The notes: generated by a model from the sequence alone, not told the origin. Counted from the stretch's first letter, positions 40,608-54,091 are shown. The stretch is 64,000 nucleotides of DNA from Eubacteriales bacterium (GCA_045127455.1 JBGVQK010000077.1:2370-66369); one strand, 5' to 3'. Made by a program: numbers and translations.

Positions 40608-42310
40608 TACTGTTTCTCCCTGTAAAATGCTTTAATTTTGGAAATATAGGTGAACACCTTGTACCCTGCAAGTGCTGCGGCAACCGCTGCAAGCTTGATC
40701 CAGGTTGCGGGGTCGTTGCGCGAGGAGAAGAAGAGTGCCAAGATAAACACCACAGCCGAAATGATAATGGCGCTAACGCCCGAGCCAACCTCGTTGGGGT
40801 TGTTTGCTTGCTCGTTAAAGGTTGCGTACTGCTCGTATTGCGGATTCATAATGTCCTTTTCTGCGCTGGAGAACAGATGTGCCGCATAAATGCAGTAGAT
40901 CATAATACCGATCATACACGCATCCATAGGCGCCATCGAGGATTCAATGGCAAAAATGTTCACCGTCAGTATGCATCCCACAAGCGCTAAGATCATAGGA
41001 AAGATCAGCTTGGAAAACAGCAGAGTCGCGTAAGGCGTGGGCTGCACCTTGTTGAGATAAGAGCTGGAGCCGTCGCGGCTGTAGACCGATGCAATATCGA
41101 TGTTTGTCATCATCATCATTAAAAGAATAACGATGATGTTGAAGCAAACGGTCATTTGTGTGCCCAAAAAGCGCGTGTTCATTGCGGAATAGAGCTTGTT
41201 GAGCAAATAGACTGCCATTGGCATAATGACGATCAGCACACCGCCAAGCTTGATGAATGCGTTGGAGCGTAGCCCGATGACGAATTCCTTTTTCATAGCC
41301 GAAAGGAAGGGCGGCATTCTGTGGTTCGCTTTTTTTCTTAACTTGTCATTCTTTTTGAACTCAAATGGCGTGGATGCCATGCGGCAGAACAACGGCTTGG
41401 AGCACAAGAAGCAAAGCACCAAAAGCACGCAGCCAACACCGATCAGGATCAAAAGATTGATAAGCGTATCGGAGTGGAAGATGACGTTGGAAAGACCTAC
41501 GGTTTTACCAACGATCAGCTCGGTAAAGGAGTATATGGGAGCAAACATTCTCGTATAATCGGCAAGAAATTCTTGAATCTCCCAATAGGTGTTGCCCCAG
41601 GTTTCAATAAAGTTGATGTTTTCCGGCACAAGACCGATCAACCACCACACAAGCAGGATCGCTCCAAGGCCGACTGCGCTGTACAAAACGTACTGCAGGA
41701 TCTTAACACGGTTAAGGAAGATATAAACGAACATTGCGGGAATGGAGAATAGAGCCGCCAAAAGAACGGGCACGCTCGATATCAGCAAAAACATCAGGAT
41801 CAGCCACGGGTAATACAGGAAGGCGTATCCCTTGATGATACCGTACGCAATGAACATGGGAATGGTGAACATAAAGCTCTTTCTCAGCTCGTAAACGTAA
41901 TAGGTTGCAAGCTTTGAAAAGAAAATGAGCGAGGGCGTTGCGGGGAAGGTTAAAAGAACTGTGTTGTCCTTGGAAAAATACAAGGACTTCATCAGGCCTA
42001 TCGTATCGGTGACCAGCGAAAGCGCAAGCATAACGCCAAAAATAAGCGAGACGACCGACACGGGAATATCGTGAACGAGCGAGAAAAGACTGAGCAGCTT
42101 GACAAAATAGAACACCACCGCGATAACCGCCGTAATGGCTGCAAACTCAATTAAGAGCCACGTCAATTTAAAAATCAGTTTTCTCTTGGAGCGGATATAG
42201 CCAAGGTCCATTTTTTCCTTGAGCTGCATTTTTACCAGCGTGGTAAGCTTTCTCCACTTTTCAAGGAAGGACTTAACAAAGCCGCTCTTTTTCAGCTTTG
42301 TTTTGGTCAT
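40607..42310 (-). CDS. 567-aa polytopic membrane protein (putative permease partner)
   Basis: At least 10 TM helices. ATGA overlap with the upstream ATPase fusion. Confidence 0.6.
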   Translation of the reverse strand: MTKTKLKKSGFVKSFLEKWRKLTTLVKMQLKEKMDLGYIRSKRKLIFKLTWLLIEFAAITAVIAVVFYFVKLLSLFSLVHDIPVSVVSLIFGVMLALSLVTDTIGLMKSLYFSKDNTVLLTFPATPSLIFFSKLATYYVYELRKSFMFTIPMFIAYGIIKGYAFLYYPWLILMFLLISSVPVLLAALFSIPAMFVYIFLNRVKILQYVLYSAVGLGAILLVWWLIGLVPENINFIETWGNTYWEIQEFLADYTRMFAPIYSFTELIVGKTVGLSNVIFHSDTLINLLILIGVGCVLLVLCFLCSKPLFCRMASTPFEFKKNDKLRKKANHRMPPFLSAMKKEFVIGLRSNAFIKLGGVLIVIMPMAVYLLNKLYSAMNTRFLGTQMTVCFNIIVILLMMMMTNIDIASVYSRDGSSSYLNKVQPTPYATLLFSKLIFPMILALVGCILTVNIFAIESSMAPMDACMIGIMIYCIYAAHLFSSAEKDIMNPQYEQYATFNEQANNPNEVGSGVSAIIISAVVFILALFFSSRNDPATWIKLAAVAAALAGYKVFTYISKIKAFYREKQ

Positions 42311-44562
42311 ACCGTTTCTCCTTGGGGTTGATTCTCGGTTGCCTCCTTAACAGATACGGGGGCTTGCGTGTTGCCGTCGATCATGCTCATATAGAACTGC
42401 TCGAGCGGAATGCCGCTCTCCTTGATCTCGGCAATGGTCTTTGTGCAAAGGATCTGTCCCTTGCGAATAATGGCAATGCGGTCGCAAATATTTTCCACAA
42501 CGTCGATGATGTGGCTGGAGAAGAAGACGATGTTGCCGCGTGCGGCGTGCTCCTTCATACATTCTTTAACCTGGAAAATGGATTCGGGGTCAAGACCCGT
42601 CAAGGGCTCGTCCAAGATCCAGATCTTGGGGTTGTGCACAAGCGCCGACATAATGGTGATCTTTTGCTTCATGCCGTGGGAGTAGGTCTTCATCGGGTTG
42701 TCGATGGCGGTCTCCAAGCGGAATCTCTTAATGTATTCTGCCATACGCTCGTCGCGATCCTCGCGCGAAACGTCGTAAAGGTCGGCAATGTAGTTGATAT
42801 ATTCTCTACCTGTCAGGTTCTCATAAAGCGCGTAGTGGTCGGGCACAAAGCCGATCTGCATTTTTGCCTCAACCGCTTGCTTTTCGGCATCGTAGCCCGA
42901 AATCTCAATGCTACCTGAGGTGATGGTTTGAATGCCGACAATGGATTTGATGATGGTAGATTTGCCCGCACCGTTGGGGCCGAGGAAGCCAAAAATCTGG
43001 CCGCCGTCAATTTCAAGATTTGCTTTATAAACCGCATAGACGTCACTGGTGGAGTAACGCTTTGAGAAATCGCGAAGGATCAATTTTCCCTCGTTTTGCG
43101 GATTCATAGGTTCTTGCATACTTCTTCCGGCAAGATGCGCCTCCAGCGCCAGCTGATCGGCCTTGATCTTGCGGTTCCTTTCCATAATGATTTTGTAGGT
43201 ATCAACAACCTCAAACGCCTGCTCGTAGAGGAACCACATAGCAAACGAAAGTGCAATGTAAACCACAAAGTAAAGCGTTTGATAAACGGGATAGAGCACA
43301 AACGTCAGATCCTTATAGTGGAACACTGCCTTGATGTCGCGCAGATCCTCTGCCCACTTACCAAGCTTTTCGGCAATAAAATCGGAGTTGATAAAGAAAA
43401 AGTCAACACCCGCATCGTAGTTGGTAAGCCATGCGTTCATAACCAAAACGAGAACGTAATATCCAAAGAACGCCACAAGAGAGTAGATAAACTGCTTCAT
43501 TTTGGGGCGTTGGAAAATGCGCAAGCTCATCAACAAAACAGGCAACAGCATTGCCATATAGTGGTTAGACCAGAACTGTATAGAACCGGCCGCGAGCCAG
43601 TTGAGCCCCTCGGTATCGGGCATAACCATTGCAAAGAATGCGCCCAACACGTTGATAAAGATGGTGAAGTAATAGAGCTTTTCCATCTTGAAGATCAGTA
43701 CCAGGGGAATGATGAACATTGCCGTGTTACAAAGGTGCAACGGCCATGCCGTCAAGTCGGTAAAGATGGAAAAATCGTAATTGTAGCAGAAGGATATCAT
43801 GGTTGCCATGCTGATGTAAAGCAGGGCGAATCTTCTCTGTTCATACTCGTATTTGGTAAAGAGAAAATGCACGCCAAAGCCAAATACCACAGAACCGTAG
43901 ATGAACAGACGGTGGATCAGGTTGAAATCCTGAACGTAAACACCGGAGTCCCCAAGACCAACAAAGGCTTGCGGTACCCAGTGAGGCATGGAAATGAGGA
44001 ACATTCCAACAAAGATCGCAACCGTTGTCAAAAGCTTTTTCCATTGGAATTGTCCGCGCTTTTGTCGGGTAATTTGGAAGATTGCCAAACCAAGTCCCAC
44101 ACCAAGCTCAAGCGCAAAGGCAAGCAGTCGGTAGTGGAAGCCCTCTGCCCCATCTCCGTTTTGCGCACGGTTGAGCATAGGAATTGCCACAATAGAGGCG
44201 GCATAAACCACGGCGGCTACGTAACGAACGATAGGCGCTACAAGCGGAATGTGCTTTTCGAAGAAGGGGTACGTGATTGCCGCGAGCTGAACCGCGTAGA
44301 TAAGCCAAAACAGCACCGTTGACAAAACAACCAGTCCCGCGCCCTGCGGACCAAAAGGCGAAGAAATGTTAAGACCGATGGTCTCCTGAATCAAAGGCGT
44401 TCCGCCAAGAAAGCGGACAAAAAAGAGTACAGAGTAAACAAGCGCAACAACGCGCGTATTGTTAAAGCGCTCTCCAAATACGTTCTTGTTTCGCAAAAAG
44501 AACAAAAACGCAAAGGTAAGCAAACAAGATGCCACCGCGGCACCGTAGTAAAGATAGTTCAA
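42307..44562 (-). CDS. Fusion protein: polytopic YwaF/TIGR02206 (TMEM164-like) membrane domain plus C-terminal ABC ATPase domain
   Basis: N-terminal roughly 450 aa are hydrophobic and contain the TAWPLHLCN motif (family hallmark LPLHLC). The C-terminus has Walker A GPNGAGKST, signature YSHGMKQK, Walker B IWILDEP and H-loop SSHI. Confidence 0.75.
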   Translation of the reverse strand: MNYLYYGAAVASCLLTFAFLFFLRNKNVFGERFNNTRVVALVYSVLFFVRFLGGTPLIQETIGLNISSPFGPQGAGLVVLSTVLFWLIYAVQLAAITYPFFEKHIPLVAPIVRYVAAVVYAASIVAIPMLNRAQNGDGAEGFHYRLLAFALELGVGLGLAIFQITRQKRGQFQWKKLLTTVAIFVGMFLISMPHWVPQAFVGLGDSGVYVQDFNLIHRLFIYGSVVFGFGVHFLFTKYEYEQRRFALLYISMATMISFCYNYDFSIFTDLTAWPLHLCNTAMFIIPLVLIFKMEKLYYFTIFINVLGAFFAMVMPDTEGLNWLAAGSIQFWSNHYMAMLLPVLLMSLRIFQRPKMKQFIYSLVAFFGYYVLVLVMNAWLTNYDAGVDFFFINSDFIAEKLGKWAEDLRDIKAVFHYKDLTFVLYPVYQTLYFVVYIALSFAMWFLYEQAFEVVDTYKIIMERNRKIKADQLALEAHLAGRSMQEPMNPQNEGKLILRDFSKRYSTSDVYAVYKANLEIDGGQIFGFLGPNGAGKSTIIKSIVGIQTITSGSIEISGYDAEKQAVEAKMQIGFVPDHYALYENLTGREYINYIADLYDVSREDRDERMAEYIKRFRLETAIDNPMKTYSHGMKQKITIMSALVHNPKIWILDEPLTGLDPESIFQVKECMKEHAARGNIVFFSSHIIDVVENICDRIAIIRKGQILCTKTIAEIKESGIPLEQFYMSMIDGNTQAPVSVKEATENQPQGETV

Positions 44563-44756: not shown

Positions 44757-44833
44757 TGGTCGGAGTGACAGGATTCGAACCTGCGGCCTCTTGGTCCCGA
44801 ACCAAGCGCACTACCAAACTGTGCCACACCCCG
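44757..44833 (-). tRNA. trnP: tRNA-Pro (anticodon CGG), CCA-3' encoded
   Basis: Hand fold of CGGGGTGTGGCACAGTTTGGTAGTGCGCTTGGTTCGGGACCAAGAGGCCGCAGGTTCGAATCCTGTCACTCCGACCA. Anticodon arm is CTTGG-TTCGGGA-CCAAG. T-loop is TTCGAAT. Confidence 0.95.
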
Positions 44834-45020
44834 ATTTAAAATTTGTTTTGTCGTTTTCCGCTTACTGCTTTGCTCCCCCTTGTGCGATTGGTGAGGGGAC
44901 CGAACCGCCGAATGCCGTTTTGCGGCTGAGGCTTCGCACATACCAAACTGTGCCACACCCCGAGAAAATTGATTTTGTTTTTTGCTTTCTTTGTGCGATT
45001 GGTGAGGGGACCGAATCGCC
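44834..45020 (-). repeat. Tandem duplication in the tRNA-Pro leader: two C-rich-loop hairpins plus a duplicated 5' fragment of tRNA-Pro
   Basis: GTGCGATTGGTGAGGGGACCGAA(C/T)CGCC occurs at 44882-44909 and 44993-45020. TACCAAACTGTGCCACACCCCG occurs at 44812-44833 (the real tRNA) and 44941-44962 (a fragment). Confidence 0.85.
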
Positions 45021-47587: not shown

Positions 47588-47616
47588 TTGCATTTCGTGT
47601 GCCACCGTGGTATAAT
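47588..47616 (+). promoter_or_regulatory. Consensus sigma-A promoter of the GTPase-NYN gene
   Basis: TTGCAT-17 nt-TATAAT with a TGG extended -10. Confidence 0.65.
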
Positions 47617-47648
47617 AATACCAAAGACTGACAGAAAGGAGACGGAAC

Positions 47649-50225
47649 GTGAAGAAAAAGCTTACCATTGGCATTCTTGCGCACGTTGATGCGGGCAAAA
47701 CAACGCTTTCGGAAGCGATGCTCTACCTGTGCGGCAAAATTCGTTCGATCGGTCGCGTGGACCATCGCAACACCTATCTTGATACCAACGTTGTGGAACG
47801 CGAGCGTGGAATTACCGTTTTTTCAAAGCAAGCGCGGTTTTCCACACCCGTGTGCGATTTTATTCTGCTTGACACTCCCGGCCACGTGGATTTTTCGGCT
47901 GAAGCCGAGCGCACGCTCACACTGCTTGACTACGCCATTTTGGTGGTGAGTGCCGCCGACGGTGTGCAAAATCACACCCGCACGCTTTGGCAACTGTTGG
48001 AGTATTACAACGTTCCCACCTTCCTTTTTGTCAACAAGACCGACATTTCCATCAAGCTTGCCGAGGAGATGGAAGAAGAGCTCTCTCGCACGCTCTCCCC
48101 TCGTTGCGTCGCCTTTCACGAGGCGCAAAACGATGCCGAGCGCGACGAAAAATTGGCAATGGCAGACGAGGAATTTTTAGAAGCCTTCTCCGCAGGTGAA
48201 GCCATTGGCGACGGGGAGCTTGCAGAGGCGGTTGCCGAGCGTCGACTCTTCCCCGCTCTGTTCGGCTCTGCTTTGCGCTTGACGGGCGTTGATCATCTGT
48301 TGCATACGCTTGACCGCCTTACCCTGCCACCCCTTTACGAAAATACCGAATTTGGCGCACGTGTATATAAAATTGCACGCGACGGCAACACGCGCCTGAC
48401 CTATCTCAAGGTGACGGGCGGCACGCTCCGCGCACGCGATGAGATCACGTATCTTTCAGCCGACGGGCAAAAAATGCGCGAAAAGGTCAATCAGTTGCGC
48501 CTCTACTCGGGCGAAAAATATGAGCAGGTCGACTCTGCCGCGGCGGGCGAGATTTGTGCCGTTGTCGGGCTTTCCGCCACCTTTATTGGAGAGGGACTCG
48601 GCTTTGAGAGCGACGCAGGTCACCCCGTGCTGGAGCCCGTTCTTTCCTATCGCATCGCACTCCCCGACGGGTGCGATCCTATGGTATACTTCCCCAAACT
48701 CAAGGAGCTGGAGGAGGAAGAGCCTTCCCTACATCTGTATTGGAACAGCGAGCTTTGCCAAATTGAGGCAAGACTCATGGGAGAGGTGCAGATCGAGCTT
48801 TTGCGCCGCCTGATCCTTGACCGTTTTGGCATCGAATGCGAGCTTGATGCAGGCAAAATTCTTTACAAAGAAAAACCCGCGGCACGTTCGCTTGGCATTG
48901 GTCACTTTGAGCCGCTCCGCCACTATGCCGAGGTGCAGCTGCTCATTGAGCCTCGCCCCAGAGGCTCGGGGCTTTCCTTTGACGTGCATCTGCCGCCAAA
49001 CGCGCTCGACCTCAATTGGCAACGCCTCATTCTTTTTAATCTTTACGAAAAGGTACACAGAGGAACGCTCACAGGTGCAATGCTGACCGATGCAAAAATC
49101 ACGCTTGTTGCAGCACGTGCACACCTAAAGCACACCGAAGGTGGCGATTTCCGCGAAGCGACCCTGCGCGCGGTACGGCAAGGATTGATGCAATCAGGCT
49201 GTATTTTACTTGAGCCCTATTACAAATTCCGCCTTGAGCTTCCCTCTGCTTTTGTGGGGCGCGCAATGTCGGACTTGCAAATGCGTGCGGCTACCTTTGA
49301 GGTAGAAAGCGCCGTGGGCGACAGAACAGTGATCGTTGGTCGCGCTCCCGTTTCAACGCTTCACGATTATGCACGCGAGCTCATTTCCTATACACGCGGC
49401 GAGGGGCATATTGCCTGCACGTCTGACGGTTACGAGCCCTGCCACAACCAGGAAGAGGTAGTGGCTGCCGCAAATTATGACCCCGTTGCCGACCTTGAAA
49501 ACACGCCCCACTCGGTATTTTGCGAGCATGGCGCAGGCGTTGTCGTTCCTTGGGACGAGGTGGAGAATTGGAAGCATCTTGAAGCTGACGTTTCCCCGAG
49601 CGATGCCGCCGCAAGCATTCTCCCCGCTCCGCGCAAGCTGGCAAACAAATATCAGTTGAGCGATGACGAAATTGAAGCCTTGATGCTGCGCTCCTTTGGT
49701 CCCATTCGCCGCAAGCAGTATAGCGAAAAACGCATCAATGCCGCCAAAGAAGAGAAAAAACGCCCCCACCGAAAGCCCCTGCCCGAGCGCCATATGACAA
49801 TTGTAGACGGCTACAACGTGATTTGGGCGTGGGATTCCTTGCGCGAGATTGCAGAATATAGCTTGGAAAAGGCGCGAGAGACGCTGATGGACATTTTGAG
49901 CAACTACGTCGCCTTTACCAAAACCGAGCTAACGCTTGTGTTTGACGCCTACCTTGTGCCCGATGGCGCAGGCTCGGAGATCACGCACGACGGCTACCGC
50001 ATCGTCTACACAAAAGAAAATCAAACCGCCGATGCCTATATTGAACGAATGATGCACGAGCTTGGTCCCAACTACAACGTGCGTATGGTATCGGGCGATA
50101 AGCTTTTGCAGTTCTCGGCAGTCCATTCGGGCATTTTGCGCGTCACCGCCGCCGAATTTGAAGCCGAGGTCACATCGGTTGGCGAAGAGATTAACGAATT
50201 TATTAAAAAGCTTTCGCAAAAGTAA
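47649..50225 (+). CDS. TetM/TetO-like (EF-G family) translational GTPase fused to a C-terminal YacP/Rae1-type NYN domain
   Basis: GTG start with AAAGGAGA RBS. G1 is AHVDAGKTT, G3 is DTPGH, G4 is NKTD. Overall collinearity with Tet(M) runs to about residue 640. Residues 716-858 (nt 49794-50222) read MTIVDGYNVIWAW...LVFDAYLV...VYTKENQTADAYIE, matching B. subtilis YacP motifs (VDGYNMIGAW, VFDAHLV, FTKENETAD). Confidence 0.8.
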   Translation: MKKKLTIGILAHVDAGKTTLSEAMLYLCGKIRSIGRVDHRNTYLDTNVVERERGITVFSKQARFSTPVCDFILLDTPGHVDFSAEAERTLTLLDYAILVVSAADGVQNHTRTLWQLLEYYNVPTFLFVNKTDISIKLAEEMEEELSRTLSPRCVAFHEAQNDAERDEKLAMADEEFLEAFSAGEAIGDGELAEAVAERRLFPALFGSALRLTGVDHLLHTLDRLTLPPLYENTEFGARVYKIARDGNTRLTYLKVTGGTLRARDEITYLSADGQKMREKVNQLRLYSGEKYEQVDSAAAGEICAVVGLSATFIGEGLGFESDAGHPVLEPVLSYRIALPDGCDPMVYFPKLKELEEEEPSLHLYWNSELCQIEARLMGEVQIELLRRLILDRFGIECELDAGKILYKEKPAARSLGIGHFEPLRHYAEVQLLIEPRPRGSGLSFDVHLPPNALDLNWQRLILFNLYEKVHRGTLTGAMLTDAKITLVAARAHLKHTEGGDFREATLRAVRQGLMQSGCILLEPYYKFRLELPSAFVGRAMSDLQMRAATFEVESAVGDRTVIVGRAPVSTLHDYARELISYTRGEGHIACTSDGYEPCHNQEEVVAAANYDPVADLENTPHSVFCEHGAGVVVPWDEVENWKHLEADVSPSDAAASILPAPRKLANKYQLSDDEIEALMLRSFGPIRRKQYSEKRINAAKEEKKRPHRKPLPERHMTIVDGYNVIWAWDSLREIAEYSLEKARETLMDILSNYVAFTKTELTLVFDAYLVPDGAGSEITHDGYRIVYTKENQTADAYIERMMHELGPNYNVRMVSGDKLLQFSAVHSGILRVTAAEFEAEVTSVGEEINEFIKKLSQK

Positions 50226-50228
50226 TAA

Positions 50229-50272
50229 AACAGAAACAAGGAGACACCCGAGGGTGTCTCCTTGTTTCTGTT
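50229..50272. terminator. Bidirectional intrinsic terminator
   Basis: AACAGAAACAAGGAGACACCC-GA-GGGTGTCTCCTTGTTTCTGTT. Confidence 0.85.
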
Positions 50273-50275
50273 GGT

Positions 50276-53200
50276 TCATGATTTTACGAGAGTACCGTCA
50301 ATGCAAACAATATAGTAATTTGGAGTGTTAAGGTTCCACGCTCCAAACTTATTTATCTCATCCCATTCGGATTGAGTCCCACAAAAAATGATGTTTTTGA
50401 GAGAAGTACACCCGCTAAGTATCTCGTTTTGAATCTTTGTGATGTTTTCGGATAACGTAACCTCTGTCAAGCTTATGCAGCCGCAAAATGTTTTAAACTC
50501 TATCACCGTAACACCCTTGCCAATGATAGCCTTTTCGAGAGCAGTACAGTCAAAGAATGCGAAATAGCCAAGCCTTTGGACATTATCCGGAATGACGATT
50601 TCTGAAAGACTGGTACAATTACTAAATGCGTATTCACCAATCTCGGTAATGCTTTCAGGAAAGTGAATACTCTTGAGAGATTGGCAAGACGCGAATGCAC
50701 TCTCCCCGATGATTTCAACGTTTTCACTCAACACAACATTTTCTAAATTTGTACATCCGGCAAACGTTGATGTGCCAATGGATTTGATACTTGCGGGAAT
50801 GGTAATGTTCACCAATCCAAGGCAAGCCTTAAACATACCATCCGCAAGATGCTCAATTCCGGCTACAAAATCAATATTTGTCAAGCCATGACAGCCGGCA
50901 AACGCATTCTTGCCCACACTAATAACACCCTTGGGGAGTGTGAACGAAGTCAAGCCTATACACCCTGTAAAAGCAAAATCCCCTATGGAGGTTACCGTTT
51001 CCGGAATAATAAATTCTGTGACCGATTCACATTTATACAACAAGCCTTCAGGCAGATATGTAATGCCCTCGCATAGAACAACTTGTGTCAAATTTTCGCA
51101 ATAGGAAAGCACATAACCACCAATCTCTAAAACGCTATCCGGAAATGCGAATTTAGTAAAAGATACGCATTCGGAAAACGCGTATTCCCCAATATATTCA
51201 ATCCCGTTGGGAAGCGTAACATCTTTTAACACAGTACACTCCGAAAACGCGTGGGCACCAATGCTTTTGAGAGTAGAGGGTAGGTCAATCGACGGCAAAC
51301 TTGTGCACCCGGAAAAGGCGTATTCATCAATGCTAACAAGTCCCTCTGGCAACGTAACGGAGATAAGAGAGTTGCATCCCGAGAATATATGGTCGCCAAG
51401 CAAGAGAGTATTCTCACGAAATACGACAGACGTAAGCGTTTTATCACACTGAATTGCAATACGGTCAACATAGGTAACACCGTTTTCCATCTGTAAAAGC
51501 AACTCACAAGTTGAAAATGCATTTTCGCCAACGTGTTTCAAGTTGTTGGGGGTATTGATTTTGGTTAGCGCATGACAATTTTGAAACGCTATACGACCAA
51601 TCTTCGTTAGTCCCTCTCCAAACGTAACACTCTCAAGAGATGTGCATTCGCGGAAAGCACCCATTTCAATTTCTACAACGCTATCCGGAATGACAATACT
51701 CGTAAGCCCTGTACACCACAAGAAAGCCTCGGGATAAATGATTTCAATGCCCTCGCAAAGCGTTATAGAAGTCAAATTCTCCCAATAATGGGCAAAAGCC
51801 ATTTGGCCAACATGTTTACTGTTAGAAAGCGTTACTTCGCGCAATGATTTATTCTCTTTTTCTACAAGATACTCCAAGTTTGCATCGCTCCAAACGTATT
51901 TATCAACGGTAGACCCCAAAAAAGGGACAGAGAGGCGTACAAGATTATCGCATCCGTACAAAAGAGAACCGCCTATGTAGGTAACACTTTTGGGGATGGT
52001 TATCTCAGTCAAACTCAAGCATTTTTTAAATGCACCGGCCCCAATACTTTCAACACCGTTTGCAATAGATATATCGGCAAGATTCTCACATTCTGCAAAA
52101 GCGTATTTACCAATGGTTTGAACACTGGATGGAATGGTAACATTAACAATATCTTTGCATCCATAAAAAGCATGGCCACCAATAGAGGTGGTGCCCTCTG
52201 GAATGTCCACATTGACCAAAAGCTCACCGTTAAGGTAGATCCTTCTTATACGGTTGCTACTCAAACTAGCCAAACCGGAATTAGATACACCCGTATCGAT
52301 CTGACACCAACGGGCAAGATCGGTAATGTGGAAATCCGTCAAATCGTGGCAATTCTTAAAGGCATCGCGATCCATCTTTTCTACACTTTCGGGAATGGCA
52401 ATACTCGCAATAAGGCGACAACCGCGGAATGCTTCCTCGCCAATAATCTTCAAATTTTGAGAGAGTGTAATCGTTTGCACATTCTCGCACTCGCTAAACG
52501 CACCTGCGCCCAGGGCAATCACGGAATCGGGCAAAACAATATTCGTCAGTGCCGAGCATTTACTGAATGCGTAATCTCCAATGCTTGCAAGCGACTTTGA
52601 AAAGGTGATCTCGCTCAAATTCGTGCAGCCGCTGAAAGCATTTGTACCGATACTCTCAACCGAATCGGGAATGACTACCTCGGTAAGTCCCGTGCAACCG
52701 CTGAAGGCATAATCACCAATGGTGATGAGCGTATCGGGCAGGGTAACGGATGTGATATCGGTTTTGTTTTGGAACGCATTGTTTTCTATTTTGGTCACGT
52801 GATAGCCGCAGAAATTAGGAGGAATGATGATATCGGTATCAATACAGTTTCCTATGCCCACCACGGTACAGGTCTTTCCGTCAAGGTTAACTGCATAGGC
52901 AAGACCCAGAGAACCGATTGCGGGGATGACCTCTTCGTCAAGCTTTGCTCCGCAATAATGGCAGAATTGACACATCAAGCCCGGCTCTCTTGCATCGGGA
53001 TCCTCGGGGGTGGGTTCTCGAATAACAGGTTCTTTCTCAATAACCCATTCTCCTGCAAAGTGTTGCAGAAGAGATGTGTAGCGCGTTTCCTTTTCACCAC
53101 AGCTGCAAAAACGAACCTCTTCGCCGGGGTCGGCACAGGTAGCATCCTTTGCGGTTTGCCACTCTCCAAATGTGTGCTCGTGCGGAAGCGTGGGCTCCGG

Positions 53201-53398
53201 GGGAACGGGCTCATCGTAGCGCAACCAAAGCACAGCACCGATAACTACCGATACAACAAAGCAGAGGCATGCGGCAAGGGCTCCCCATTTTACCCATCCT
53301 TTGTTTGCATGTGTCTTTTTCCACTCTCCGGGGGCTGCATCAAGGATTAGCTGCGTGTCAATTTGACGCAACGCCTTAAAAAGTTTTTTTCCACTCAT
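50276..53398 (-). CDS. 1040-aa single-pass membrane protein: short cytoplasmic anti-sigma-like N-terminus, TM helix, two Cys4 modules, and a very large BspA-type leucine-rich-repeat ectodomain
   Basis: ATGA overlap with the upstream ECF sigma gene. TM helix is WGALAACLCFVVSVVIGAVLWL. There are dozens of roughly 23-aa repeats of the form IP.SV..IG..AF..C..L..I (LRR_5/BspA type). Confidence 0.8.
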   Translation of the reverse strand: MSGKKLFKALRQIDTQLILDAAPGEWKKTHANKGWVKWGALAACLCFVVSVVIGAVLWLRYDEPVPPEPTLPHEHTFGEWQTAKDATCADPGEEVRFCSCGEKETRYTSLLQHFAGEWVIEKEPVIREPTPEDPDAREPGLMCQFCHYCGAKLDEEVIPAIGSLGLAYAVNLDGKTCTVVGIGNCIDTDIIIPPNFCGYHVTKIENNAFQNKTDITSVTLPDTLITIGDYAFSGCTGLTEVVIPDSVESIGTNAFSGCTNLSEITFSKSLASIGDYAFSKCSALTNIVLPDSVIALGAGAFSECENVQTITLSQNLKIIGEEAFRGCRLIASIAIPESVEKMDRDAFKNCHDLTDFHITDLARWCQIDTGVSNSGLASLSSNRIRRIYLNGELLVNVDIPEGTTSIGGHAFYGCKDIVNVTIPSSVQTIGKYAFAECENLADISIANGVESIGAGAFKKCLSLTEITIPKSVTYIGGSLLYGCDNLVRLSVPFLGSTVDKYVWSDANLEYLVEKENKSLREVTLSNSKHVGQMAFAHYWENLTSITLCEGIEIIYPEAFLWCTGLTSIVIPDSVVEIEMGAFRECTSLESVTFGEGLTKIGRIAFQNCHALTKINTPNNLKHVGENAFSTCELLLQMENGVTYVDRIAIQCDKTLTSVVFRENTLLLGDHIFSGCNSLISVTLPEGLVSIDEYAFSGCTSLPSIDLPSTLKSIGAHAFSECTVLKDVTLPNGIEYIGEYAFSECVSFTKFAFPDSVLEIGGYVLSYCENLTQVVLCEGITYLPEGLLYKCESVTEFIIPETVTSIGDFAFTGCIGLTSFTLPKGVISVGKNAFAGCHGLTNIDFVAGIEHLADGMFKACLGLVNITIPASIKSIGTSTFAGCTNLENVVLSENVEIIGESAFASCQSLKSIHFPESITEIGEYAFSNCTSLSEIVIPDNVQRLGYFAFFDCTALEKAIIGKGVTVIEFKTFCGCISLTEVTLSENITKIQNEILSGCTSLKNIIFCGTQSEWDEINKFGAWNLNTPNYYIVCIDGTLVKS

Positions 53399-53955
53399 CC
53401 TTCAAAGCCCTCCTTTGCCAAAAAATCCTTTAGCTTTTGTCTTGTGCGGAACATCAGCATTGCCACGGCATTTTCTTTCATATCAAACTCTTCGGCTATC
53501 TCTGCCATAGATGAAGCATACCAATACCGACGGACAAAGATGTTTCTTGTCTTTTTGGGCAGCGACCATATAAAACGGTTCAATGCATCGCGTAAGGCAA
53601 AGTTCTCTGCCATATCCTCACTCTCATTTACATCCGCAATACATTCATCAAGCTCGTGATAAATGAGGGGCATCTTTCCCCCGCCGCGCTTCTCTGCCGT
53701 TTGTTCCTCATAGCGGTTGATGGCTAACTGATTGCTGATCATACCGACGTATGCTTTGAGCGGGTCGGGGCGGTTGGGTGGTACGGTGTTCCACGTTTTG
53801 AGATATGTATCGTTTACGATCTCCTCGGCATCGCTATCGTCCGACAAAATTTGATAGGCGATATAATGACAGTAACGCCCATACTTTTTGTCCGTTTCCG
53901 TAATAGCCTCCTCGGATCGAGCCCAATACAGATCTACGATTTGGTTATCTTCCAT
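53395..53955 (-). CDS. ECF-type sigma-70 family RNA polymerase sigma factor
   Basis: Start set at MEDNQIVDLYW (RBS AAAGGAGA). Region 2 is DAEEIVNDTYLKTW. Region 4 HTH is SMAEIAEEFDMKENAVAMLMFRTRQKLK. Confidence 0.85.
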   Translation of the reverse strand: MEDNQIVDLYWARSEEAITETDKKYGRYCHYIAYQILSDDSDAEEIVNDTYLKTWNTVPPNRPDPLKAYVGMISNQLAINRYEEQTAEKRGGGKMPLIYHELDECIADVNESEDMAENFALRDALNRFIWSLPKKTRNIFVRRYWYASSMAEIAEEFDMKENAVAMLMFRTRQKLKDFLAKEGFEG

Positions 53956-54091
53956 AATCTGTCTCCTTTGCTTTTTACTCGGTGGTTTTCCCTTCACCAA
54001 TCTAAACAGAAAAAACCATGGTTATATCACTCATTTTTTTCATTTTTTTCTTGATAACATCAATTTTATCATATTTTTTGCCGTTTGTATA

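Follow-up and report, generated by a model that had tools for sequence, protein, structure and literature searches.

Proteins that join a TetM-like translational GTPase (trGTPase) to a C-terminal NYN_YacP nuclease domain have been noted in Clostridia by two earlier studies, one counting 'ten species' and leaving the function open (Atkinson 2015, PMC4342817), the other calling their role in some Clostridia unclear (Matelska et al. 2017, PMC5499597). The nuclease half resembles Rae1 (YacP) of Bacillus subtilis, a translation- and ribosome-dependent mRNA endonuclease that acts on stalled ribosomes and cuts 12 nt upstream of their A-site codon (PMC12407103), and NYN_YacP active sites comprise at least four conserved Asp residues with a GYN motif right after the first (PMC5499597). 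The 64,000-nt stretch of Eubacteriales bacterium DNA analysed here (GCA_045127455.1, JBGVQK010000077.1:2370-66369; hereafter the window) encodes such a protein in one uninterrupted open reading frame (ORF; 47649..50225, + strand, as for all features of the gene given below), with a GTG start and 858 aa plus stop. Its architecture, in which a NYN_YacP domain is C-terminal to a Tet-like trGTPase, and its taxonomic class, Clostridia, are those of the published fusions, and the novelty implied by a preliminary description of the locus falls to the 2015 and 2017 papers. Only the architecture was noted there; here we find a larger family (at least 80 species) with motifs of its own that fails the tests for Tet proteins, a large NYN-less sister clade of ~650-aa proteins, and gain and loss of the nuclease tail.

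That the GTPase and the Rae1-type NYN domain form a single polypeptide, as the preliminary description claimed, is borne out by one ORF with Pfam domains for both halves, and every motif it quoted (G1, G3, G4, the basic linker and the NYN motifs) was recovered at the same residues. The combination recurs widely: at least 240 listed full-length homologues from two homologue searches (850-933 aa, 47-98% identical) have the same Pfam set, GTP_EFTU plus NYN_YacP, and all 29 members of a diverse alignment contain both halves and a NYN_YacP match. When representative proteins were queried with the NYN part, the best 150 matches included another 26 long proteins (846-960 aa), and most of the others were C-terminal fragments. 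A frameshift or assembly artefact uniting two separate genes, which would have undone the claim, is ruled out by thousands of same-length homologues and by four independent bovine-gut assemblies, whose contigs span the fusion gene and its linker/NYN junction with zero indels. One apparent natural split into two genes (locus L088; GCA_002315315.1, contig DCGT01000046.1) is really a 13-N scaffold gap within the linker (L088 5939-5951), which divides the gene calls into a 689-aa protein with no Pfam match on record and a 188-aa, seemingly stand-alone NYN protein. Scaffold gaps of this kind can be one source of the short NYN entries seen in protein databases.

The GTPase body has the layout of elongation factor EF-G. 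Its G domain with the G' insert covers residues 1-232 (47649..48344; Pfam GTP_EFTU 4-224, 164 bits) and contains G1 AHVDAGKTT at 11-19, the switch-I T56, G3 DTPGH at 75-79, G4 NKTD at 129-132 and G5 GSAL at 206-209, so that motifs G1 to G5, the catalytic His79 after DxxG and domain II, the features that mark a trGTPase, are all present. Among 29 members sharing 32-73% identity, D14, G16, K17, T18, T56, D75-H79, K130 and D132 are invariant. Domains II and III (residues 233-402; 48345..48854) were delimited by Pfam EF-G_D2, a weak EFG_III match, the secondary structure of an AlphaFold2 (AF2) model and Foldseek alignment to EF-G; they are followed by domain IV (403-517; 48855..49199; Pfam EFG_IV 404-516) and domain V (518-600; 49200..49448; Pfam EFG_C 520-601, 68 bits; predicted local distance difference test score, pLDDT, 83-93). 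The AF2 model, built from an 85-sequence alignment (mean pLDDT 79.6, predicted template modelling score 0.54), shows an EF-G-like five-domain body spanning 1-597, and its best Foldseek matches are EF-G chains, many of them ribosome-bound (~690 columns, E about 1e-50). By sequence, the best solved-structure matches of the GTPase part are Tet(O) (244 bits), Tet(M) (227) and EF-G (207), with E-values of about 1e-71 to 1e-66 for the two Tet proteins and about 1e-60 for EF-G. The preliminary description had extended collinearity with Tet and EF-G proteins to residue ~640; this holds up to ~600, while 601-641 form a family-specific module outside the Tet/EF-G range.

The NYN_YacP domain occupies residues 714-858 (49788..50222), where Pfam PF05991 matches 718-856 with 132.6 bits against a cut-off of 24.6, and carries the motifs VDGYNVIWAW (719-728), LVFDAYLV (763-770) and VYTKENQTADAYIE (786-799). 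The catalytic Asp residues D720, D766, D795 and D817 are all present, with GYN at 721-723, and the D720-G-Y-N723 stretch and the other three Asp residues are invariant among members down to 32% identity. They align to D7, D53, D81 and D104 of B. subtilis Rae1, whose sequence came from PLSDB, and a search with the NYN part retrieved the crystal structures of this protein (YacP/Rae1; 5MQ8/5MQ9) with E=1.5e-19 over 140 residues. In the AF2 model the domain alternates strands and helices and is confident over 714-857 (pLDDT 74-89). Sequence comparison thus confirms a fusion of a GTPase and a NYN domain, each with intact catalytic residues, and since the GTPase residues (including His79) and the NYN Asp/GYN residues are both invariant, both activities appear to be under selection.

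Although the NYN_YacP fold family, the DGYN motif and the four catalytic Asp residues are common to Rae1 and the fusion, the two differ in several respects. Identity is 31% by alignment and 34% in the local tblastn match, the fusion domain is without the last ~25 residues of Rae1, and it belongs to a distinct subclade, scoring 73 bits to Rae1 versus at least 105 bits to each of its 150 best family matches. The gene for Rae1, a stand-alone protein of 170 aa, follows rlmB, whereas the fusion NYN domain forms the C-terminal part of an 858-aa GTPase; neither the stand-alone ~170-aa form nor the cysS-mrnC-rlmB-rae1 operon typical of Rae1 is seen here. The window contains no rlmB, mrnC, cysS or sigH, and no second trGTPase or NYN gene. 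In records of Bacilli, C. difficile and Acetoanaerobium an rlmB-rae1 pair is present and no fusion was seen, whereas in fusion-bearing Monoglobus, and also in Vescimonas, rlmB is followed by other genes rather than by a stand-alone rae1. These few genomes hint at a complementary distribution, in keeping with the fusion taking the place of Rae1.

Two motifs at the tip of domain IV set the family apart. The first, GIGHFEPLRHYAEV (residues 416-429; nt 48894-48935), aligns to Tet(M) EVPPNPFWA, and the second, ARAHLKHTEGGDFR (residues 489-502; nt 49113-49154), aligns to Tet(M) LYYSPVSTPADFR. Their family forms, GxGH(F/Y)EPLRHYAEV and G(R/K)AHxKHTEGGDFR, show little or no variation among 85 non-redundant members. 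Since few parts of the protein are better conserved, a specific contact with the decoding centre can be argued.

The same tip bears on whether the protein confers drug resistance. Atkinson 2015 (PMC4342817) proposed a new resistance mechanism, in which the fusion would be a tetracycline ribosomal-protection protein with an accessory RNase, and several lines of evidence agree with it: Tet(O) and Tet(M) are the nearest solved relatives, the protein shares with them a five-domain EF-G-like GTPase, intact G motifs and similar length, tet_protect (NF012153) is its best NCBIfam model, and the RefSeq name of a member is either 'translation factor GTPase family protein' or, in several cases, 'TetM/TetW/TetO/TetS family tetracycline resistance ribosomal protection protein'. 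However, the tet_protect score is 393 bits against a cut-off of 775, and those of the other Tet models, Otr(A) and Tet(Q) included, are also well under their thresholds (260/1100 for the TetM/W/O/S model NF033148, 314/900 for NF000120, 242/1425 for NF012154). The EF-G equivalog TIGR00484 likewise falls short (226.8 against 659.4). Loop III of domain IV is a key element of Tet(M), whose Pro-509 touches C1054 in the drug site (PMC4750697, PMC8161019). The fusion has a loop of equal length but with a different conserved motif: Tet(M) L505-Y-Y-S-P-V-S-T-P513 faces R490-A-H-L-K-H-T-E-G498, so that Y506, Y507, S508 and P509 align to A491, H492, L493 and K494. Loop I differs as well, and an unrelated module stands where the Tet C-terminal extension would be.

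The gene also behaves unlike a resistance determinant. It is chromosomal, vertically inherited, nuclease-bearing and found across common gut commensal genera in housekeeping contexts; the patchy horizontal spread on mobile elements that is a hallmark of Tet genes was not seen, nor was an Rfam leader or attenuator RNA of the tet(M) kind between the putative promoter and the start codon. Compared with EF-G, the overall fold and the G motifs with their catalytic His are alike, whereas domain IV has a different tip and the G' region resembles Tet more closely. Taken together, the sub-cut-off scores, the replaced loop III, the vertical inheritance and the lack of a mobile or attenuator context uphold the preliminary warning that this should not be read as a tetracycline-resistance gene. 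Judged on its sequence, the protein shares its descent with the Tet proteins without being a genuine one, and we regard the resistance hypothesis as very improbable.

The fusion is widespread in Clostridia. In a scan of one genome per species, which returned more than 595 relatives, the best 80 were examined and all proved to be full-length fusions with 43-72% identity, placing the fusion in at least 80 species. Carriers include Oscillospiraceae, Lachnospiraceae, Ruminococcaceae, Acutalibacteraceae, Faecalibacterium, Intestinimonas, Flavonifractor, Dysosmobacter, Blautia, Dorea, Herbinix, Fusibacter, Anaerovorax and others; the nearest genomes are Clostridia metagenome-assembled genomes at 67-72% identity, followed by Oscillospiraceae and Lachnospiraceae. 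The window itself belongs to an uncultured member of Clostridia from ruminant guts. The nearest neighbour in the gene tree came from the same order in 42 of 44 cases, and inheritance, to judge from this tree, is vertical and follows taxonomy. Across 67 loci we found no conserved neighbour or operon partner, and the helix-turn-helix neighbours reported by Matelska 2017 did not emerge as conserved in these loci.

In Agathobacter rectalis and Monoglobus the fusion gene has housekeeping surroundings, and plasmid carriage was rejected because their 'plasmid' records are chromosome-like. Several large PLSDB 'plasmid' records (L082, L083, L085, L086 and L090, from A. rectalis, Monoglobus, Vescimonas and Subdoligranulum) carry core housekeeping genes (map, secA, ssb, rlmB, ftsH, rsmI), which makes them resemble chromids or fragments of a chromosome, and such records inflate any tally of 'tet-like' genes on plasmids. 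Phage carriage was rejected too: the 43.8-kb MT835514 (L087, 'UNVERIFIED: Bacteriophage sp.') is bacterial chromosome, encoding FeoB, RsmH, a Glu/Gln-tRNA synthetase, a RelA/SpoT-type synthetase, glycerol kinase and an 869-aa GTPase-NYN fusion, and a second 'phage' record with the fusion, MT835563, is probably bacterial DNA as well.

These contexts also bear on a possible role as a toxin or anti-phage abortive-infection effector, which would cut RNA on ribosomes and halt translation. Among PIN-like and NYN nucleases, as among ribosome-dependent RNases, toxins are common, and a BrnT/CopG pair adjoins the A. rectalis fusion gene. Against this, neither the whole protein nor the NYN part matched any PADLOC-DB defence model, the 67 loci have no conserved antitoxin or immunity neighbour, the two 'phage' records with the fusion are, or in one case probably are, bacterial DNA, and the gene is seemingly single-copy in each fetched locus, vertical and set in housekeeping contexts. 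The tested features disfavour both resistance and a toxin or defence role, the latter to the point where we give it hardly any credence.

GTPases of the same kind but without the nuclease are common. Examples are LSL_RS10690 on pMP118 of L. salivarius UCC118 (644 aa, 44% identical over residues 3-645) and a 658-aa protein of Subdoligranulum variabile. We took the 120 best relatives of the latter, 119 of them full-length, and scored the NYN domain by a sequence test: 117 of the 119 are NYN-less and, save two longer outliers, ~636-690 aa long. These 'translation factor GTPase family' proteins (typically about 640-665 aa; Clostridia and Lactobacillaceae) are 44-49% identical to the fusion over 1-645 and share its GHFEPLRHY motif, mostly its H.KHTEGGDFR motif and its post-domain-V module, but have neither tether nor NYN domain; the loop I motif was found in 116 of the 117 and the loop III motif in 113, and the proteins end ~17 residues past the module. 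In the L. salivarius record (L089 2271-4662) the gene, labelled a Tet protein, stands divergently beside rpsN (for an S14 paralogue) and a gene for a 'putative metal homeostasis protein', a hint of some connection with alternative ribosomal proteins or with zinc limitation.

Mean identity of the GTPase bodies is 61% among fused proteins, 55% among unfused ones and 46% between the groups, and in 191 of 194 cases a body has one of its own type as nearest neighbour; by these sequence identities, fused and unfused bodies are two clades. Exceptions include P0409 (896 aa) and P0411 (N-truncated), which are 89% and 98% identical to the unfused S. variabile protein but carry the whole tail. The linker, conserved motif, basic segment and NYN domain thus seem to behave as one movable module, gained or lost between near-identical GTPases. 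Because the NYN-less clade keeps the domain IV motifs, the GTPase is probably not merely a delivery vehicle for the nuclease and would have a nuclease-independent job.

Between the GTPase body and the nuclease lie two regions that match neither Pfam families nor PDB sequences. The post-domain-V module (residues 601-641; 49449..49571) is predicted as helix/beta-hairpin/helix (AF2 pLDDT about 73-87), has the consensus PCHN..EV....YDP..D.ENTP.SVFC.HGAG..VPW.EV...H, and is kept in fused members and in 110 of the 117 unfused ones. A Rieske-like resemblance of its CxH..G.VVPW stretch was discarded as not significant (E=1). Across 85 sequences C598 and C625 never vary and H627 hardly does (nt 49440-49529), though this does not extend to the most divergent members; these residues could be a lineage-specific metal or disulfide site linked to the module.

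The tether proper (residues 642-713; 49572..49787) consists of a low-complexity variable segment, the motif DDEIEALMLRSFGPIRR (residues 672-688; nt 49662-49712) and a Lys/Arg/Pro-rich segment at 689-715. The motif occurs only in NYN-bearing proteins, in the family form D-ELE-I(F/M)-R-(F/Y)G-I(K/R)R between two low-complexity segments. AF2 places two short helices at 661-683 and gives pLDDT <50 at 652-661 and 684-712. The region corresponding to 602-717 is anywhere between 93 and 185 residues long in family members and always includes the motif; a linker this free in length yet never missing is what would be expected of a tether.

It is here that a looser arrangement has to be considered, in which a housekeeping Tet-like GTPase and a self-recruiting Rae1 are merely co-expressed and co-localised, with no GTP gating of cleavage. 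The long, disordered and length-variable tether would allow this, the GTPase is common without the tail, tails have been swapped between near-identical bodies, and B. subtilis Rae1 functions without a fused GTPase. However, the fused clade is old, broad and stable, as its mean identity and same-type neighbours indicate; the 17-residue tether motif travels with the NYN domain, which suggests that it serves specifically in docking or regulation and is more than a passive string; and neither a natural two-gene split nor, in three long contigs, a yacP gene beside unfused GTPases was found. We consider loose coupling unlikely, though a serious competitor.

How the two halves might work together depends on where Rae1 acts. 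The preliminary description reasoned that Rae1 cuts in the A site, exactly where EF-G and TetM dock, but that premise has gone: the A-site model was withdrawn by its authors in 2025, and Rae1 is now assigned a tail-end position on the ribosome (PMC12407103). Co-occupancy of the A site can be rejected in any case, since domain IV and a 16-kDa NYN domain could not both fit. The interpretation we lean towards, at a little less than even confidence, is that the fusion is a stand-alone, constitutive, chromosomal translation factor of Clostridia, a GTP-dependent ribosome sensor with a tethered Rae1-type mRNA endonuclease. In its GTP form, the EF-G/Tet-like body would bind the factor site of 70S ribosomes whose A site is empty or blocked, as on stalled or collided ribosomes, and the His/Lys/Arg-rich tip of domain IV would enter the decoding centre. 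The ~70-residue basic tether would then let the NYN domain reach and cut mRNA at the ribosome edge or the disome interface, in parallel to the cut made by Rae1 upstream of the A-site codon. The sarcin-ricin loop would trigger GTP hydrolysis via His79 and thereby release of the protein, while the cut mRNA would be degraded and trailing ribosomes rescued, for example by tmRNA. In this scheme ribosome binding, the ribosome state recognised, the mRNA substrate, the cut position and GTP gating are all predictions.

Several observations weigh against this translation-factor interpretation. The factor-binding site is distant from the mRNA exit side, where Rae1 is at present presumed to sit, a gap that the tether may or may not span, and the cut might instead fall on the entry side or between the ribosomes of a disome. 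The nuclease-independent job of a NYN-less clade with the same domain IV motifs is left unexplained, and a tail gained or lost between GTPases 89-98% identical means that coupling may be loose. Evidence on the co-occurrence of fusion and rae1 comes from very few genomes, and full-text literature searches found no functional study of any fusion member. Metatranscriptome contigs map within the fusion gene, including the linker/NYN junction, which is weak evidence of expression given low depth, contigs only and possible DNA carry-over.

Alternatively, the substrate may be rRNA or tRNA, with the protein serving as a ribosome-maturation, quality-control or turnover factor. Its GTPase would sense the state of a subunit or of the 70S ribosome and license a NYN cut, which might fall in a bound tRNA or in rRNA, for instance close to the platform at the 16S 3' end. 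Eukaryotic 40S maturation, where eIF5B stimulates cleavage by Nob1, offers an analogy. The tail-end position of Rae1 adjoins the 16S 3' end, stand-alone yacP lies with genes for rRNA/tRNA enzymes in the cysS-mrnC-rlmB-rae1 operon, and earlier authors proposed a role in rRNA/tRNA processing. One fused locus adjoins rsmH and a Glu/Gln-tRNA synthetase gene, and one unfused member adjoins rpsN. However, mRNAs are the only experimentally defined substrates of the YacP family, the 67 loci show no conserved rRNA- or tRNA-gene neighbour, and the rlmB/mrnC context is lost in the fused gene. An rRNA or tRNA target therefore seems to us improbable, if worth keeping in view.

A more far-reaching possibility, which we hold to be rather unlikely but not far-fetched, is that the fusion is a one-polypeptide bacterial 'no-go decay' machine, in which a housekeeping Tet/EF-G-like GTPase would sense stalls or collisions with its conserved domain IV tip and gate by GTP the mRNA cut that its tethered Rae1 makes at the ribosome edge, and the NYN-less clade would be a cleavage-free sensor. 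SmrB/Cue2 (PMC12407103) and Pelota-Hbs1 no-go decay are functional analogues, in that an mRNA cut beside a stalled ribosome starts rescue, but SMR and NYN folds are unrelated and the nuclease in those systems has no covalent GTPase.

The fusion gene appears to have its own promoter, ribosome-binding site and terminator. An AGGAG ribosome-binding site (47637..47641) lies 7 nt ahead of the GTG start, and the N-terminus MKKKLTIGILAHVDAGKT agrees with the family consensus. The putative promoter (47588..47616) was seen by eye and has weak support, as its -35 element (TTGCAT, 47588-47593) matches 3/6 positions and the consensus scanner did not list it; a 17-nt spacer separates this from a TG-extended -10 (TGgTATAAT, 47608-47616). 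A 20-bp perfect hairpin (50229..50272), common to the convergent downstream gene, would serve as a bidirectional terminator. The GC content of the fusion gene is ~55%, against 43-46% in the 2-kb bins either side (48001-50000 versus flanks), a contrast that may stem from the flanking genes, which encode large surface or secreted proteins, rather than from the GTPase gene.

Downstream, on the - strand (50276-54000), the window encodes a 1040-aa leucine-rich-repeat (BspA-like) protein and then an extracytoplasmic function (ECF)-type sigma factor; in a syntenic relative (L001 12655-18883) ECF-sigma/LRR_5 pairs occur in repeats. Upstream, also on the - strand (42307-44562), lies a gene for a 751-aa protein with a TMEM164-like membrane domain and a C-terminal ABC ATPase (Pfam via the syntenic ortholog). 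Between this and the fusion gene is tRNA-Pro(cgg) (44757-44833, - strand), with an exact 23-nt copy of its 5' end (44812-44834 = 44941-44963) and beside it a 30-nt repeat pair (44880-44909 and 44991-45020, 97% identical). These repeats are partial duplications of the tRNA and may represent an old integration scar.

The family matters for annotation as well as for ribosome biology. RefSeq applies Tet labels to many members, among them those of abundant human-gut commensals such as Agathobacter rectalis; the sequence evidence speaks against these labels, and resistome surveys may over-count resistance genes. The recruitment of Rae1 to stalled ribosomes and its position there were revised as late as 2025, and the fusion, to a factor whose docking site is known, provides together with its tail-less variants a ready test system. 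Together, the fused and unfused clades form a large uncharacterised housekeeping branch beside the Tet proteins that bears on the origin of ribosomal-protection resistance; if the no-go decay scheme were true, the Tet ribosomal-protection proteins would descend from widespread ribosome-rescue GTPases of Firmicutes.

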